This document shows positions 4,399-52,041 of a stretch of DNA of 64,000 nucleotides, one piece after another. The notes beneath the pieces are model-generated. The model was not told the origin of the DNA. It made no database searches and saw nothing but the letters and a program-made list of their open reading frames with translations. Each line of letters begins with the position of its first letter. The first letter of the stretch is position 1. The position numbers were made by a program, and so were the translations under genes. The DNA is from Eledone cirrhosa (Eukaryota): contig OZ024754.1 in NCBI GenBank assembly GCA_964016885.1, positions 5,084,001 through 5,148,000 on the forward strand, given 5' to 3'.

Positions 4399-4490
4399 GC
4401 ATATCTGACGACCTTTCGATTACACAGTCAGGTTTGATCTATAATAGATCTTACCTCGAGCTGATTGATAGTGAAACATATGTAATATGT
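4399..4490 (+). ncRNA. Minimal type I hammerhead ribozyme motif
   Basis: Stem I GCATAT(4399)/ATATGT(4485). Core CTGACGA 4405-4411. Long stem II with inner AGGT..GATCTA/TAGATC..ACCT. GAAA 4473-4476. Perfect palindromic stem III ACATATGT. Predicted cleavage after GUA at 4484. Confidence 0.75.
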
Positions 4491-4926
4491 CATTAAATAT
4501 GATATCATGCAACACTGAATCCTTGTTCCTTATAGCATTTGTGTGTGTGCGTGTATGATGATATATATACATATATGATGATATATATGTATTATATGTA
4601 TGTATATATGTCTGTGTGTGTGAGATTTCTCTAGAACCTACTTTCTTTCTTTCTCTCTCTCTCTCCAAATCAAACTGCTGGTGTGTTGTGTGCATTATTG
4701 AATAGGGTGGTGCATCATTTTGCAGCTGCATTGTCAGAAGGTGATGCATTTGTAACAAAAAATATATATGCCCCCTCTCCCTCCTCTGACTGTGGTCTCC
4801 CTCTGACTCTCTCTCTCTCTCTCTCTGACTCTCTCTTTGTCTCTTCCTGTCTCTCTAAATAGATAAAATACAAGATGGGGTGTACATTCCATTAGATTCT
4901 TGTATCTTTAAAGCTCTAGGTTTTTG

Positions 4927-5900
4927 ATGGTGTTGTTGTTATGGTGGTGGTGGTGGTGATGGTGTTATATTGGTGGTGGTGGTGTTGTATTGGTGGTGGT
5001 GGTGATGGTGTTATATTGATGGTGGTGGTGTTGTATTGGTGGTGATGGTGTTATATTGGTGGTGTGGTGGTGTTGTATTGGTGGTGGTGGTGTTATATTG
5101 GTGGTGGTGGTGATGGTGTTATATTGGTGGTGTGGTGGTGGTAGAGTGGTGTTGTATTGGTGGTATGGTAATAATGGTATTAGTGGTGTTGGTAATAATA
5201 GTTGTGGTGTTGGTGATAGTAGTGGTGGTGGTGGTAATAGTAGTGGTTGGTGGTGATGGTGGTGATGGTGATTCTGTTTAGTTCTACAAGAGTATTCAAA
5301 ACTGTCAAATGGTATTAATCACTTCAAATTTTTTGCCTACACTTGAGAGTATTCCTCTGATAATGATGATGGTAGTGATGGTAGTGATGGTGATGGTAGT
5401 GATGGTAGTGATGGTGATGGTAGTGATGGTAGTGGTAGTGATGGTGATGGTAGTGATGATGGTGATGGTAGTGATGATAGTGATGATGATGGTGATGGTA
5501 GTGGTGGTAGTGGTGGTGGTGATGGTGATGGTAGTGATGATGATGGTGATGGTAGTGATGATGATGGTGATGGTAGTGATGATGATGATAATGATGGTGA
5601 TGATAGTGATGATGATGATAATAATGATGGTGATGAGTGATGGTGATGATAGTGATGGTGATGATAGTGATGATGATGATGATGATGATGATGATGATGA
5701 TGATGATGATGATGATGATGATGATGATGATGATGATGATGATGATGATGATGATGATGATGATGATGATGATGATGGTGGTGGTGATGGTAGTGATGGT
5801 GATCATAGTGATGGGTATGATGATGATAGTGTTCCTTATGAAGATGATGTTGGTGATGGTGGTAGAGGTGTCGGTGATAATGATGATGACATTGGTGATG
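4927..5900. repeat. (GGT)n and (GAT)n trinucleotide microsatellite fields
   Basis: Direct reading. Pure (GAT)n at about 5669-5776. Confidence 0.95.
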
Positions 5901-6256
5901 GTGGGGTCGTCAGATAATAATAATAATAATAACATGATGTGATGATCATCATCACATCATCAATGTATTGATCATTACAGTGATAACTTTAGAGTAAGAC
6001 TCTCTCTCTCTCTCTCTCTCTCTCTCTCTCTTTCTCTCTCTCTCTCTCTCTCTCTCTCCTTAAGTTCCTTTCATTACAGATTTTTAGTTAAAATCCTTTT
6101 GAGGTCAATTTAACCTTTTTTGTACTTCCAAGATGCTTGATACAATATAGTACCAGTGAAATACTGGGGGTGATATAGATAGCTGTTCAACTACCTCACG
6201 AAAATGCAATCTTTTTACCTAGATCTTTTTTTAAAAGTTATTTTTTAAAATATTTT

Positions 6257-6475
6257 TTAACTCTTTTCCATATATTTCTAATGAAAGACACTGCTTATGG
6301 CTTTCAAGAGAGATTACTAAAATTATTAATTATTTCATTGCTGAGATAGTAAATTAATGTAAGGTTCTTAAATAAAATAATGTTGGAAGATTTAAATTGG
6401 AAACCTTTAAAATGGGTGCTTTTATTTCATAGAACCAGAGCTGGTTTTGGCCAGGGTTGGTAACTAAAGGGTTAA
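6257..6475 (+). mobile_element. TTAA-flanked MITE family 2, diverged
   Basis: TTAACTCTTTT...ATATTTCTAATGAAA...GGTTGGTAACTAAAGGGTTAA. Homologous to 33239-33483. Confidence 0.65.
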
Positions 6476-7987
6476 AGTGTTCCTATTTATATTTATATTA
6501 AAAGATTCCATCATAATTTTTTTAAAGAAATTTTTGTTAAATGATGTTTTAAATAGCAACTTACTAATAAAAATGTTAATTATTTTAGTAAATATTTACA
6601 ATTTTTTTTGACGGAGATGACGAAGGACCGTGACAAGTGGAGAGATGCTGTGCTGAATAGGACCCGTCCCACCCTTGCAAGCAGGGAAAAGCGGACGTAA
6701 AATGATGATGATAGGCTGTTTTTCGTTAGAAATACAATAATGAAGGGGTTAAATAAACCCTTCAAAATTCTTAATTCTTATCTATATTAGCCACACACAC
6801 TCACACACTTCTCTCTCTCTCTCTCACACACATACAAACAGGCACACACATATAAAGACATACACACGCACTAACTCTATTCTAACTTACTGTCGGCCTC
6901 CTCCCACATACACATACTACACAAACACACACACACTGGTTCACACACGCATACACACAGCAAATGTACAGTGACTACCATCAGCAGAGAGGAAGGGACA
7001 GGCCTGTAGCTGTCTCAGTAAACAGGATGACTGAGTAAGGAAGTTATTTCTTATTCAGTTGAGCCTAGTTTTCCCTTTTGATTGTAAAACACACACACAC
7101 ATGCATGCATTTACATTTGCACATACACACACATGCATTCACGTTTACACACACACATGCATTTACATCTGCACATACACACAAATATGCCTGCACACAC
7201 ACACACACGCACGCACATTCACATCTGGACACGGAGACACACATTCACATCCACACTCACTCCCACACACACACATTCACACTGCCTCCACACACACACA
7301 CACAGTCTCCACCTCTTATTTTTTAAAATTATTTTTAGTGATTTTAGGGCAGTTTTTTTTCTTTTTCTATTTTTTCTAGTTTTTTTTTTTTTATTATTCT
7401 TTAGATTTTATTTTATTGTATTTTTTTAAGCGTCTCTAATCATATTGAGAGAAGGAACGCCCACCTTCAAGGTAGACTGTTGTCCCCTTACCTTGAAATA
7501 CTGGCTGGGGATAAAAGGGACCTATGCCCCCACCCAAGCCAACCTTAACCCACCTTACGTGGGGGTGGAGCAGAGGGGGGTTGGAGGATGTTCTATTTAT
7601 TTAATTTACGCTTTTTTAAAATATATATGTGTGTGTACATGTGTCTTTTTTATATGCATATATATGTGTGTGTCTATGTATGTATGTGTGTTTGTGTATA
7701 TATATATATATATATATATATACACACACACACATGTATTTGTAGTTTTTGTAAAATAAAAAAAAAAGAAAAGGGGGTGTATCTCTAGGTGTATTGTGTA
7801 CAGTGGTGGGGTGAGGTTGGGGTGGGACAAGATGATATCAGTGCTGGCTGCTATAGGACAAAGACTTCTTTGAAATCTACAGCCATAATAATAATAATAA
7901 TAATAATAATAATGGTGGCAGTACTAGTGGTGGTGGGGGTGGTGGCTGTAATTGTAAGAGCAAGCTCCAATGATGATGATAATGATG

Positions 7988-8400
7988 GTACCTGGCTGGC
8001 TGTTGTGATGGAGATGGTGAGTCTTGTGAGAGAGAGAGAGAGGGGGGAGAGTACCTGGCTGGCTGTTGTGATGGAGATGGTGAGTCTTGTGAGAGAGAGG
8101 GGGGGGAGAGTACCTGGCTGGCTGTTGTGATGGAGATGGTGAGTCTTGTGAGAGAGAGAGAGAGGGGGGAGTACCTGGCTGGCTGTTGTGATGAAGATGG
8201 TGAGTCTTGTGAGATAGAGGGGGGGAGAGTACCTGGCTGGCTGTTGTGATGGAGATGGTGAGTCTTGTGAGAGAGAGAGAGAGAGGGGGGAGTACCTGGC
8301 TGGCTGTTGTGATGGAGATGGTGAGTCTTGTGAGATAGAGGGGGGGAGAGTACCTGGCTGGCTGTTGTGATGAAGATGAGTGATTCTTGTGAGAGAAAGG
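7988..8400. repeat. ~60-bp minisatellite x7 with a variable (GA)n/G linker
   Basis: GTACCTGGCTGGCTGTTGTGATGGAGATGGTGAGTCTTGTGAGA repeated 7 times. Confidence 0.95.
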
Positions 8401-50300: not shown

Positions 50301-50839
50301 GTGTGTGGGTACGTGTATGCTTGTGTGCGGCTGTATATAGTGAGTCGACATGTATATCAGTGTGTATATGTATGTATGTATTGTATTGTATGTGTGTATG
50401 TATGTATATGTGTGTGTTTTCCTTAGATGTCTTAATGAGTGTATTACAAAGATCCATGAATAGAAATATATTATTGTGGTGGTGGTGGTGTGGTAGTGGA
50501 GGTGGTGGTGTTGTGGTGGTGGTGATGGTGTGGTAGTGGAGGTGGTGGTGTGGTAGTGGAGGTGGTGGTGTTGTGGTGTGGTGGTGGTGATGGTGTGTAT
50601 TTTGTTGCCCTGCATATTATTCTTTCCCTCCCCCCTACACTAATTCCTCCTCCCCCACAACACCCCTCTATGTCCACAAATCTCCAGTCATGGGGCATAT
50701 ATATATATATATATATATATATATACACACACCTATGTGTTTGTTTAAATACATGTACTTTAAATAACTTCAGACACAGATACATATATACATTCATATA
50801 AATATATATTTTCTTCTGTTCATACACGTGTGTGTGCGT

Positions 50840-51606
50840 GTTTATATATATATATACATATTTGTGTGTCTGTGTGTTTATATATATATACATATTTGTG
50901 TGTGTTTGTGTTTATATATATATACATATTTGTGTGTGTTTGTGTTTATATATATATACATATTTGTGTGTGTGCTTATATATATATACATATGTGTGTG
51001 TGTCCTTATATATATATACATATTTGTGTGTGTTTGTGTTTATTTATATATACATATTTGTGTGTGTGCTTATATATATATACATATGTGTGTGTGTGCT
51101 TATATATATATATACATATTTGTGTGTCTGTGTGTCTATATATATATATACATATTTGTGTGTGTGCTTATATATATATACATATGTGTGTGTGTCCTTA
51201 TATATATATACATATTTGTGTGTGTTTGTGTTTATATATATATACATATTTGTGTGTGTTTGTGTTTATATATATATACATATTTGTGTGTGTGCTTATA
51301 TATATATACATATGTGTGTGTGTCCTTATATATATATACATATTTGTGTGTGTTTGTGTTTATTTATATATACATATTTGTGTGTGTGCTTATATATATA
51401 TACATATGTGTGTGTGTCCTTATATATATATACATATTTGTGTGTGTTTGTGTTTATATATATATACATATGTGTGTGTGTGCTTATATATATATATACA
51501 TATTTGTGTGTCTGTGTGTCTATATATATATATACATATTTGTGTGTGTGTGTGTTTATATATATATATATACATATTTGTGTGTGTGCTTATATATATA
51601 TACATA
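50840..51606. repeat. ~30-bp compound (TA)/(TG) minisatellite
   Basis: TATATATACATATTTGTGTGTGT... repeated about 24 times. Confidence 0.9.
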
Positions 51607-51754
51607 TGTAAGAGACTATTTTGAGTTCCTAACTCAATATATACCTTTGATATATTCGGCTCCGTTAATTTGTTGAGCTATTTCAAATGACGAATAAACC
51701 TGGCTGCTATTTTTAGCTGTGTGGGTTTGTGAGATGTGCTAGGACACCATGTGC

Positions 51755-51901
51755 GCTATTATAGTTACGGCCCTTGCCATTCTGAGTTCAAATCCCGCTG
51801 AGGTTAACTTTGCCTTTCATCCTTATGGGGTCTATAAAATAAAGTACCAGTAATACACTGGGGTATTGCTGGCCTTGTGCCAAAAGTAGAAACAATTATT
51901 A
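51755..51901 (+). mobile_element. SINE family A, 5'-truncated
   Basis: CTGAGTTCAAATCCCGCTGAGGTTAACTTTGCCTTTCATCC...GTAGAAACAATTATT. Confidence 0.9.
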
Positions 51902-51949
51902 TATATGGCACACTGTTCAGTTTCTTAATATACTTAGAAGTGTCTAGGA

Positions 51950-52041
51950 TACTAATTCATCACCCACTGATGAGCTTAAATTGGTAATTCTATTCACAAT
52001 TAACTTTGCGAAACAACACCAAGTTGTCTGGGTGATTGGTA
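51950..52041 (+). ncRNA. Canonical type I hammerhead ribozyme
   Basis: Stem I ATCACCCA(51959)/TGGGTGAT(52029), extendable past a bulge. CTGATGA 51967-51973. Stem II closed by G-C and C-G. GAAA 52010-52013. Stem III CAAC-ACCAA-GTTG. GUC cleavage after 52028. Confidence 0.9.

Follow-up and report, generated by a model that had tools for sequence, protein, structure and literature searches.

Hammerhead ribozyme motifs of Eledone cirrhosa as predicted 3′ ends of Hydra-clade Penelope-like elements, with a conserved hairpin pair at the ends of their copies

What kind of element brings nine hammerhead ribozyme motifs into 64,000 nucleotides (nt) of DNA? The question is raised by a stretch of the Eledone cirrhosa genome (assembly GCA_964016885.1, contig OZ024754.1, positions 5,084,001 to 5,148,000; hereafter the window, at its full length), for which an earlier note, made from the letters alone, had claimed nine complete motifs and had taken them for short non-autonomous retroelements. 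We hold with considerable confidence that the motifs are the 3′ ends of Penelope-like elements (PLEs) of the Hydra clade, inserted in (TA)n tracts, and that a downstream pair of hairpins likely positions the reverse transcriptase (RT) at two start sites.

The nine motifs and their chance expectation

All nine motifs are present in the window. The position numbers given for them in the earlier note correspond to the outer edges of stem I, while the CUGANGA cores start at 4405(+), 19539(−), 19670(+), 34082(+), 38914(−), 40339(+), 45678(−), 45838(+) and 51967(+). Each joins the core CUGANGA/GAAA/UH to stems I, II and III, as is characteristic of type I hammerheads, with a stem I of 6, 8, 8, 4, 8, 3, 8, 8 and 8 bp and with predicted cleavage after 4484, 19485, 19724, 34131, 38869, 40419, 45631, 45885 and 52028 (both in order of position). 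The gap of 6 nt between GAAA and UA was found, as claimed, in eight of the nine, the exception being the family E motif (51967), which has a 13-nt stem-loop III and UC instead of UA. As to the short stem III, described before as a perfect or near palindrome, full self-pairing over 8 nt holds for three of the eight (4405, −7.0; 19670, −10.5; 34082, −6.0 kcal/mol), but the other five are broken or weak, with the first pair mismatched in the three family C copies and a weak stem in 19539 and 40339 (−1.4 to −2.9 kcal/mol). Because stem III is broken or weak in these five of the nine, most of the window copies look decayed; stem II is weak in families D and E.

That such motifs are chance matches in AT-rich, microsatellite-rich DNA is conceivable for a window of 65% AT with 324 tandem-repeat rows, but the shuffled controls, a check already proposed with the original claim, refute it and leave it a negligible probability. 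The strictest descriptor setting recovered six of the nine motifs, against a mean of 0.13–0.22 (maximum 2) in 3 × 60 dinucleotide shuffles of the window, and five 6-nt palindromic motifs were detected, against 0–0.02 in the shuffles. In the whole genome, which is 3.0 Gb in size and rich in microsatellites, a pattern for the B/C type of motif gave 63,376 matches versus 750 in the control, and patterns for single families gave 100–28,375 versus 0.

The two pairs 19539/19670 and 45678/45838 each represent a single inverted insertion, and therefore the window holds seven insertion events and not nine; since the paired copies are on opposite strands, they cannot pair within one transcript. Neither is nine the full inventory of hammerhead sequences, because at least two 5′-truncated half-hammerheads of family F (39283−, 48465+) had been overlooked. 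The 5′ half of the family D hammerhead is present as a 32-nt tandem triplication at 34002–34097, giving three CUGAAGA cores ahead of one GAAA. No hammerhead was included among the best 150 of 591 e-value matches to Rfam in the window, these 150 being microsatellite-driven microRNA matches only; nothing reached the Rfam gathering score in six loci, and ARAGORN returned no transfer RNA (tRNA). The features of the window are as follows.

4375..4527, +: family A (subfamily A2) 5′-truncated PLE end between (TA)n tracts, 74% identity to the family A reference
4399–4490, +: A2 hammerhead with a 61-nt stem II
19351..19598, −: family B inverted copy, with a tail of about 90 nt ending in (TA)n; hammerhead 19477–19547
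19409..19435, −: bulged hairpin 1 of family B, start of the tail
19601..19770, +: family B direct copy, ending at the body end in (TA)n; hammerhead 19662–19732
33868..34190, +: family D 3′ end (non-autonomous unit of about 2.2 kb); hammerhead 34078–34135
38790..39012, −: family C 3′ end with a broken first pair in stem III; hammerhead 38861–38922
39157..39319, −: family F truncated end with 3′ half-hammerhead, hairpin 1 (39207–39232) and tail
40236..40314, −: family A inverted tail, mutated hairpin 1 (40284–40310)
40313..40470, +: family A (A1) direct 3′ end; hammerhead 40336–40422
44003..44191, both orientations: family F inverted and direct fragments with tail
45487..45751, −: family C inverted copy, hairpin 1 at 45551–45572, tail ending in (TA)n; hammerhead 45623–45686
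45764..45923, +: family C direct copy, ending at the body end; hammerhead 45830–45893
48394..48536, both orientations: family F inverted tail and direct half-hammerhead
51607..52292, +: family E 506-nt unit without open reading frame, partial tandem; hammerhead 51959–52036 with full stem-loop III
about 51760–51897: other repeat splitting the family E unit
51658..51679, +: family E hairpin 2, immediately following the tail end
52209..52236, +: family E hairpin 1, immediately following the body end
19050–19186 and 33730–33781: further family F fragments

Families, reading frames and copy number

The motifs fall into five families, as had been estimated: A (4405, 40339), B (19539/19670), C (38914, 45678/45838), D (34082) and E (51967). 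A profile search (positive control, locus L144, E=4.5e-38) detected no homology to RT or endonuclease in the window or within 10 kb on each side, in agreement with the earlier observation that no such frame is near. The pseudo-long terminal repeats (pLTRs) of A, B and C were nevertheless found attached to RT/GIY-YIG open reading frames (ORFs) in copies elsewhere, in support of the Penelope origin suggested before: upstream of the motif run 0.9–1.5 kb of 3′ untranslated region (UTR) and then the ORF, so that the window copies of these families are 5′-truncated ends of autonomous-type elements.

Among 18 family B regions, picked for paired motifs 1.8–7.5 kb apart or in clusters, one (L086) carries a whole frame of 821 codons and four more carry frames of 590–775 codons, the unit being 3.3–3.9 kb long. 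The family B protein (P0001, 821 codons) is encoded by a single ORF with RT followed by a C-terminal GIY-YIG endonuclease, and carries RRLRW at 55, SDKTN at 143 (DKT replacing DKG), YRDD, a CxCX5C linker (C680/C682/C688), CxxC (C780/C783) and CxH (C808/H810). The endonuclease motifs follow in the order LIY...YFG, R, E and N, and the CCHH motif is absent, with only one Cys within the GIY-YIG stretch; the same set of CxCX5C, CxxC and CxH without CCHH was found in fragments of A, C and F. With a structure model of P0001 (predicted local distance difference test, pLDDT, 83), telomerase RT made up seven of the ten top PDB matches, and three of 26 relatives gave a weak match to the GIY-YIG Pfam profile; among the protein relatives, the only named one belongs to Argonauta hians. 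Residues 603–677 of P0001 form a low-confidence insertion of about 75 residues, rich in Asn, Pro and Thr, between the RT thumb and the endonuclease linker, which is missing from most of the relatives of about 700 residues. Another Hydra-type PLE protein (P0007) has the source label 'GATA zinc finger domain-containing protein 14-like', apparently a mislabel.

Family C has a sister ORF with 42–67% identity, and in L323 endonuclease, UTR and hammerhead follow one another on the same strand; family A leads through a 1.4-kb UTR to a decayed Hydra-type endonuclease in L144, one of 20 sampled A loci; and family F is linked to an ORF in L185/L317. The layout of L099 (inverted pLTR, direct pLTR, ORF, pLTR) is the textbook arrangement of a PLE, and partial tandem pLTRs, an inverted 5′ copy, a tail at one end and 5′ truncation are all present among L099, L088 and the window pairs. 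Naiad PLEs have an N-terminal endonuclease and no canonical hammerhead, whereas here the endonuclease is C-terminal and hammerheads are present. On this sequence evidence, we assign all nine motifs to the hammerhead-bearing 3′ ends (pLTRs) of PLEs of the Hydra clade, with (TA)n as the site of insertion; the elements are new members of a known clade, and the hammerheads themselves are expected features of PLEs. Beside Hydra copies, L092:790-3019 and L132 carry broken RT/GIY-YIG ORFs of other PLE clades, presumably Neptune- or Poseidon-like.

The description of the elements as short and non-autonomous holds for D and E (two of the nine motifs), but A, B and C (seven of the nine) are linked to ORFs. 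Family D has a unit of about 2.2 kb, joined tail-to-head, with no ORF homology in the four units tested, and family E a unit of 506 nt, also tail-to-head and without ORF homology; the lack of an ORF that marks retrozymes is thus seen in D and E and not in A, B, C or F. D and E are best described as non-autonomous units that share the ends of the ORF-bearing families. Hydra ORFs near D copies (L168, L178, L182, L292) were considered as the ORF of D and rejected, because they are on the opposite strand or unshared among copies and also because the D unit closes tail-to-head without them. A very abundant repeat of about 150 nt with a B-box-like motif, which we take to be a tRNA-derived short interspersed element, is located at 10849–11007, 51760–51897 and at least ten other sites in the window, and is inserted into the internal TATA of family E in several copies.

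The claim of a very abundant and diverse ribozyme-bearing population was borne out by the genome-wide counts and the number of families. Exact patterns, whose counts are lower bounds, gave 11,783 copies for a 29-mer of family B, 441 for A, 211 for D and 100 for E, with 0 in each control, and 28,375 for a 31-mer of family F, of which the window holds only truncated copies. The B/C-type pattern occurs once per 47 kb, and the five in the window are about 3.7 times the mean, in part because of the two inverted pairs. The elements fill the genome in tens of thousands of copies. The (TA)n tracts in which they had been noticed to lie are the insertion targets, and copies of different PLE families are stacked in (TA)n left by earlier insertions (L075, L200, L205, L007, L020, L030), so that these tracts act as insertion hot spots.

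In whole copies of family F, found elsewhere in the genome, the hammerhead core is the U3-A8 variant (UUGANAA) and stem III is long. The idea of F as a half-hammerhead mini-element was rejected, as longer copies carry the whole U3-A8-core hammerhead together with an ORF; about 21 of 30 copies, sampled by the search pattern, stop within about 20 nt upstream of that pattern, at points in stem II that suggest a hot spot of truncation. The tail hairpin is shared by still other hammerhead families (G and more; L059, L161, L062, L158, L154, L170, L143), whose stems differ and whose stem II reaches about 80 nt.

Two end points and a bulged hairpin

Where do the copies end? There are two fixed stopping points, the body end and, 60–150 nt downstream, the tail end, and both are joined to (TA)n. 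One bulged-hairpin fold of 22–30 nt opens the tail in families A to F and in the further families; it consists of RCTC, an upper stem that varies in sequence, a T-H bulge of 2 nt and GAGY, with the outer stem altered on both sides (GCTC/GAGC versus ACTC/GAGT). For anchors from loci of this genome with the upper stem left unspecified, all three upper pairs formed in 47 of 110, against 5, 5 and 0 in shifted positions, and the misses include antisense readings of the same hairpins. Copies of B, D and E that run past the tail end have a second hairpin immediately after it, which in family B is located 72 nt before the ATG. The (TA)n-joined ends lie within about 16 nt upstream of a hairpin start, or 1 nt inside it, in 58/58 cases for B, 47/47 for D and 29/30 for E, and likewise for hairpin 1 in 31/32 for A, 37/38 for C and 45/46 for F; ends without a (TA)n junction, of which each family had between 5 and about 26, were excluded from these counts, and for A, C and F include tail ends. 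At exact junctions the gap between end and hairpin is about 2–9 nt, blurred by TA microhomology.

These ends bear on the view put forward in the earlier note, that all the elements are short non-autonomous retrozymes, cut by dimeric hammerheads, circularised and copied as units. The 506-nt head-to-tail unit of E, with a stem III that appears competent as a monomer, and the ORF-less permuted unit of D agree with it, as does the proposal that retrozymes of animals are derivatives of PLEs (bioRxiv 10.64898/2026.07.22.740005). Both families share the ORF-less, head-to-tail hammerhead unit with the animal non-LTR (long terminal repeat) retrozymes. We consider the view very improbable as an account of the whole population, since seven of the nine motifs belong to ORF-linked families, copies end at the hairpins, 25–190 nt downstream of the predicted cleavage site, and L088 and L099 hold whole hammerheads in both pLTRs, as if uncut RNA had been copied. 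In contrast to the long tandem arrays of animal retrozymes, most copies here are single, inverted or of 1.x units, with PLE-type inversions and tails; among the 100 matches of family E, one direct pair at unit spacing was found, the others being single or inverted.

To see the hairpin beyond this genome, we used a metagenome scan that gave 78 loci with Hydra-type ORFs (30–39% identity), forming 54 families by DNA clustering. A hammerhead was found 3′ of the ORF in 33 of the 54 loci with enough sequence. The hairpin was present in the 250 nt preceding the ORF in 24 of 58 loci (controls, 1, 2 and 2) and 3′ of the ORF in 11 of 54 (controls, 2 and 3). The hairpins lie 40–170 nt upstream of the ORF start, and 16 loci from 12 families carry two of them, 59–83 nt apart. 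With the outer motif alone specified, 150 of 180 upper-stem cells pair, against a null of 95.7 ± 5.1 (maximum 116 in 5000), and with one anchor per family 93.6 of 111 cells pair, against 59.4 ± 4.3. In the 60 anchors the first upper pair is C-G in 28 and T-A in 26, and the bulge is TT, TC or TA in 57; the outer motif occurs 60 times in sense versus 12 in antisense. The hairpin, with strong covariation, is carried by 37 of the 54 independent metagenomic Hydra families. Fixed anchors served for counting the pairs, because a MAFFT alignment of 37 hairpins lost the stem register. By eye, three of five consensus ends published for Hydra elements carry the motif (Hydra-2_Amil, Hydra-1_Ajap twice, Hydra-2_Ajap). 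Literature searches on the hairpin and on octopus hammerheads, with subscription papers, Repbase reports and figure S2C of PMC11167929 outside their scope, gave no description of the pair, and the main text of PMC8557442 has no match for hairpin, stem-loop or stem loop. The conserved bulged hairpin pair at PLE ends looks new.

Several points weigh against the account as a whole. In P0001 the residue after RRLRW is T or I and not the K of the Hydra feature RWK, Pfam gave nothing significant on this protein, and for the A2 copy at 4405 the sole tie to an ORF is its 74% identity to A1. The anchor motif was picked after the pattern had been seen. The strict descriptor had no match in 34 of the 58 metagenomic upstream regions and 17 of the 54 families have no anchor, partly because the contigs are short; by eye, the hairpin is partial in the published end of Hydra-1_Crog and not seen in that of Hydra-1_Obim. 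In this genome only B, D and E showed hairpin 2, and in A, C, F and G no copy was found to run across the tail end. TA microhomology and over-extension in BLAST make the end positions imprecise. Taken singly, the hairpins have no unusual stability (z, 0 to −2.3), and four of six fold in another register or not at all.

A proposed role for the hairpins, and related systems

On balance we lean slightly towards the proposal that the clade-wide, two-copy RNA hairpin (RCTC-stem-TH-GAGY-RCT) is the binding and positioning signal for the RT of Hydra PLEs, which would start a few bases 5′ of each hairpin, with the spacing setting the tail length, so that any RNA carrying the pair would be copied into (TA)n, as in the ORF-less D and E. 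Such a role may be compared with that of the template boundary element of telomerase RNA. In this scheme, the tandem transcript (pLTR-ORF-pLTR-tail) would be bound at a hairpin by the element protein, the endonuclease would nick (TA)n, and complementary DNA (cDNA) synthesis would start inside the RNA, in the AU-rich stretch just 5′ of either hairpin; by usually stopping early, the cDNA would leave the stubs of 100–300 bp, a second priming at the other hairpin would give the inverted copy, and D and E RNAs would be copied in trans because both hairpins are kept. The PLE 'tail' is likely created by the two start sites that the hairpins set.

Two other roles of the hairpins were considered for the same elements. 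They might serve translation, transcription or RNA stability as parts of the 5′ UTR, their adjacency to the ends being a by-product of the partial-tandem layout; their place 40–170 nt upstream of the ORF start, and that of family B hairpin 2, fit such a function, but the ORF-less D and E retain both hairpins and both end points, and the end position tracks the hairpin in six families of differing sequence, and we judge this quite unlikely. Alternatively, the hairpins might act as DNA, being recognised or cut by the endonuclease in the cDNA or a donor intermediate so that both ends are trimmed. The tail is attributed to endonuclease-mediated resolution by Craig et al. (PMC8557442), the D. virilis tail is needed for endonuclease recognition according to earlier work described in PMC11167929, and a hairpin can form on either strand. 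However, at upper pairs 2–3 the sense strand shows 12 of the G-U type versus 5 of the A-C/C-A type (G-T on the other strand), and the only in vitro PLE system maps both ends to RT starts on RNA (PMC11167929); this alternative is possible but still unlikely compared with the positioning of RT on RNA.

As for the hammerhead itself, the core is about 2.3 times less variable than the flanks within families (15/1092 versus 439/13697 cells, best BLAST copies only; Fisher p=0.0003), a comparison on which the earlier note had staked its claim, and the stems are altered on both sides between subfamilies; the hammerhead is apparently under selection between families. No copy ends at the cleavage site, and this, together with the whole hammerheads in both pLTRs, points to uncut RNA as the likely template, the ribozyme probably being uncut in the RNA that is copied. 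Its cleavage may process precursors or be protein-assisted.

The Hydra PLEs described by Craig et al. (2021; PMC8557442), including Hydra-1_Obim of Octopus bimaculoides, likewise carry a hammerhead close to the 3′ end, insert into (TA)n and have inverted 5′ copies and a tail on one side, and agree in the single ORF with RT then GIY-YIG, the RW of the RWK motif, DKT, CxCX5C, CxxC and CxH, and in the lack of CCHH. The units described here are longer (B, 3.3–3.9 kb), with tails of 70–150 nt versus 30–40, a mostly 6-nt palindromic stem III and stems II of up to 62 nt; and at least 63,000 plus 28,000 motif matches stand against a Hydra-1_Obim listed with no pLTR and with four copies ending at one site. 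In the Poseidon element PAc of Anolis carolinensis (Frangieh et al. 2024, PMC11167929), two internal RT starts bound the tail in vitro and hammerhead cleavage is dispensable for insertion. PAc shares the AT-rich target and the two ends bounding a tail, but belongs to a different clade, and its starts lie in the ORF, in an AC-rich stem-loop and at a site that lacks homology to the target; the ends here, in contrast, are in AU-rich 5′ UTR bases just upstream of a bulged hairpin, often with TA microhomology to the target. The minimal type I hammerheads of metazoan PLE pLTRs (Cervera and de la Peña 2014, PMC4209133) share with ours the short palindromic stem III, the low predicted monomer activity, the opposite-strand pairs (100–700 bp apart), the mostly single truncated copies and, in family F, the U3-A8 core variant; their top counts were about 4,000 and 9,000 per genome, and one pattern here gives at least 7-fold more, though with different descriptors. 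A 2026 repeat annotation of O. vulgaris lists 31 recently active Penelope-like families, its available text having no match for ribozyme or hammerhead.

With more than 90,000 motif matches in two patterns, the hammerhead load of this genome is among the largest in the literature compared, in a clade previously known from a few low-copy families. How a PLE chooses its two 3′ ends and makes a tail is a question with one in vitro system. The hairpin with its natural compensatory changes, the intact ORF of the young family B and the minimal substrates D and E make the proposal directly testable. If it is true, the hairpin would be a portable signal for a microsatellite-targeted, telomerase-related RT, and PLEs would have their first defined template-positioning element.

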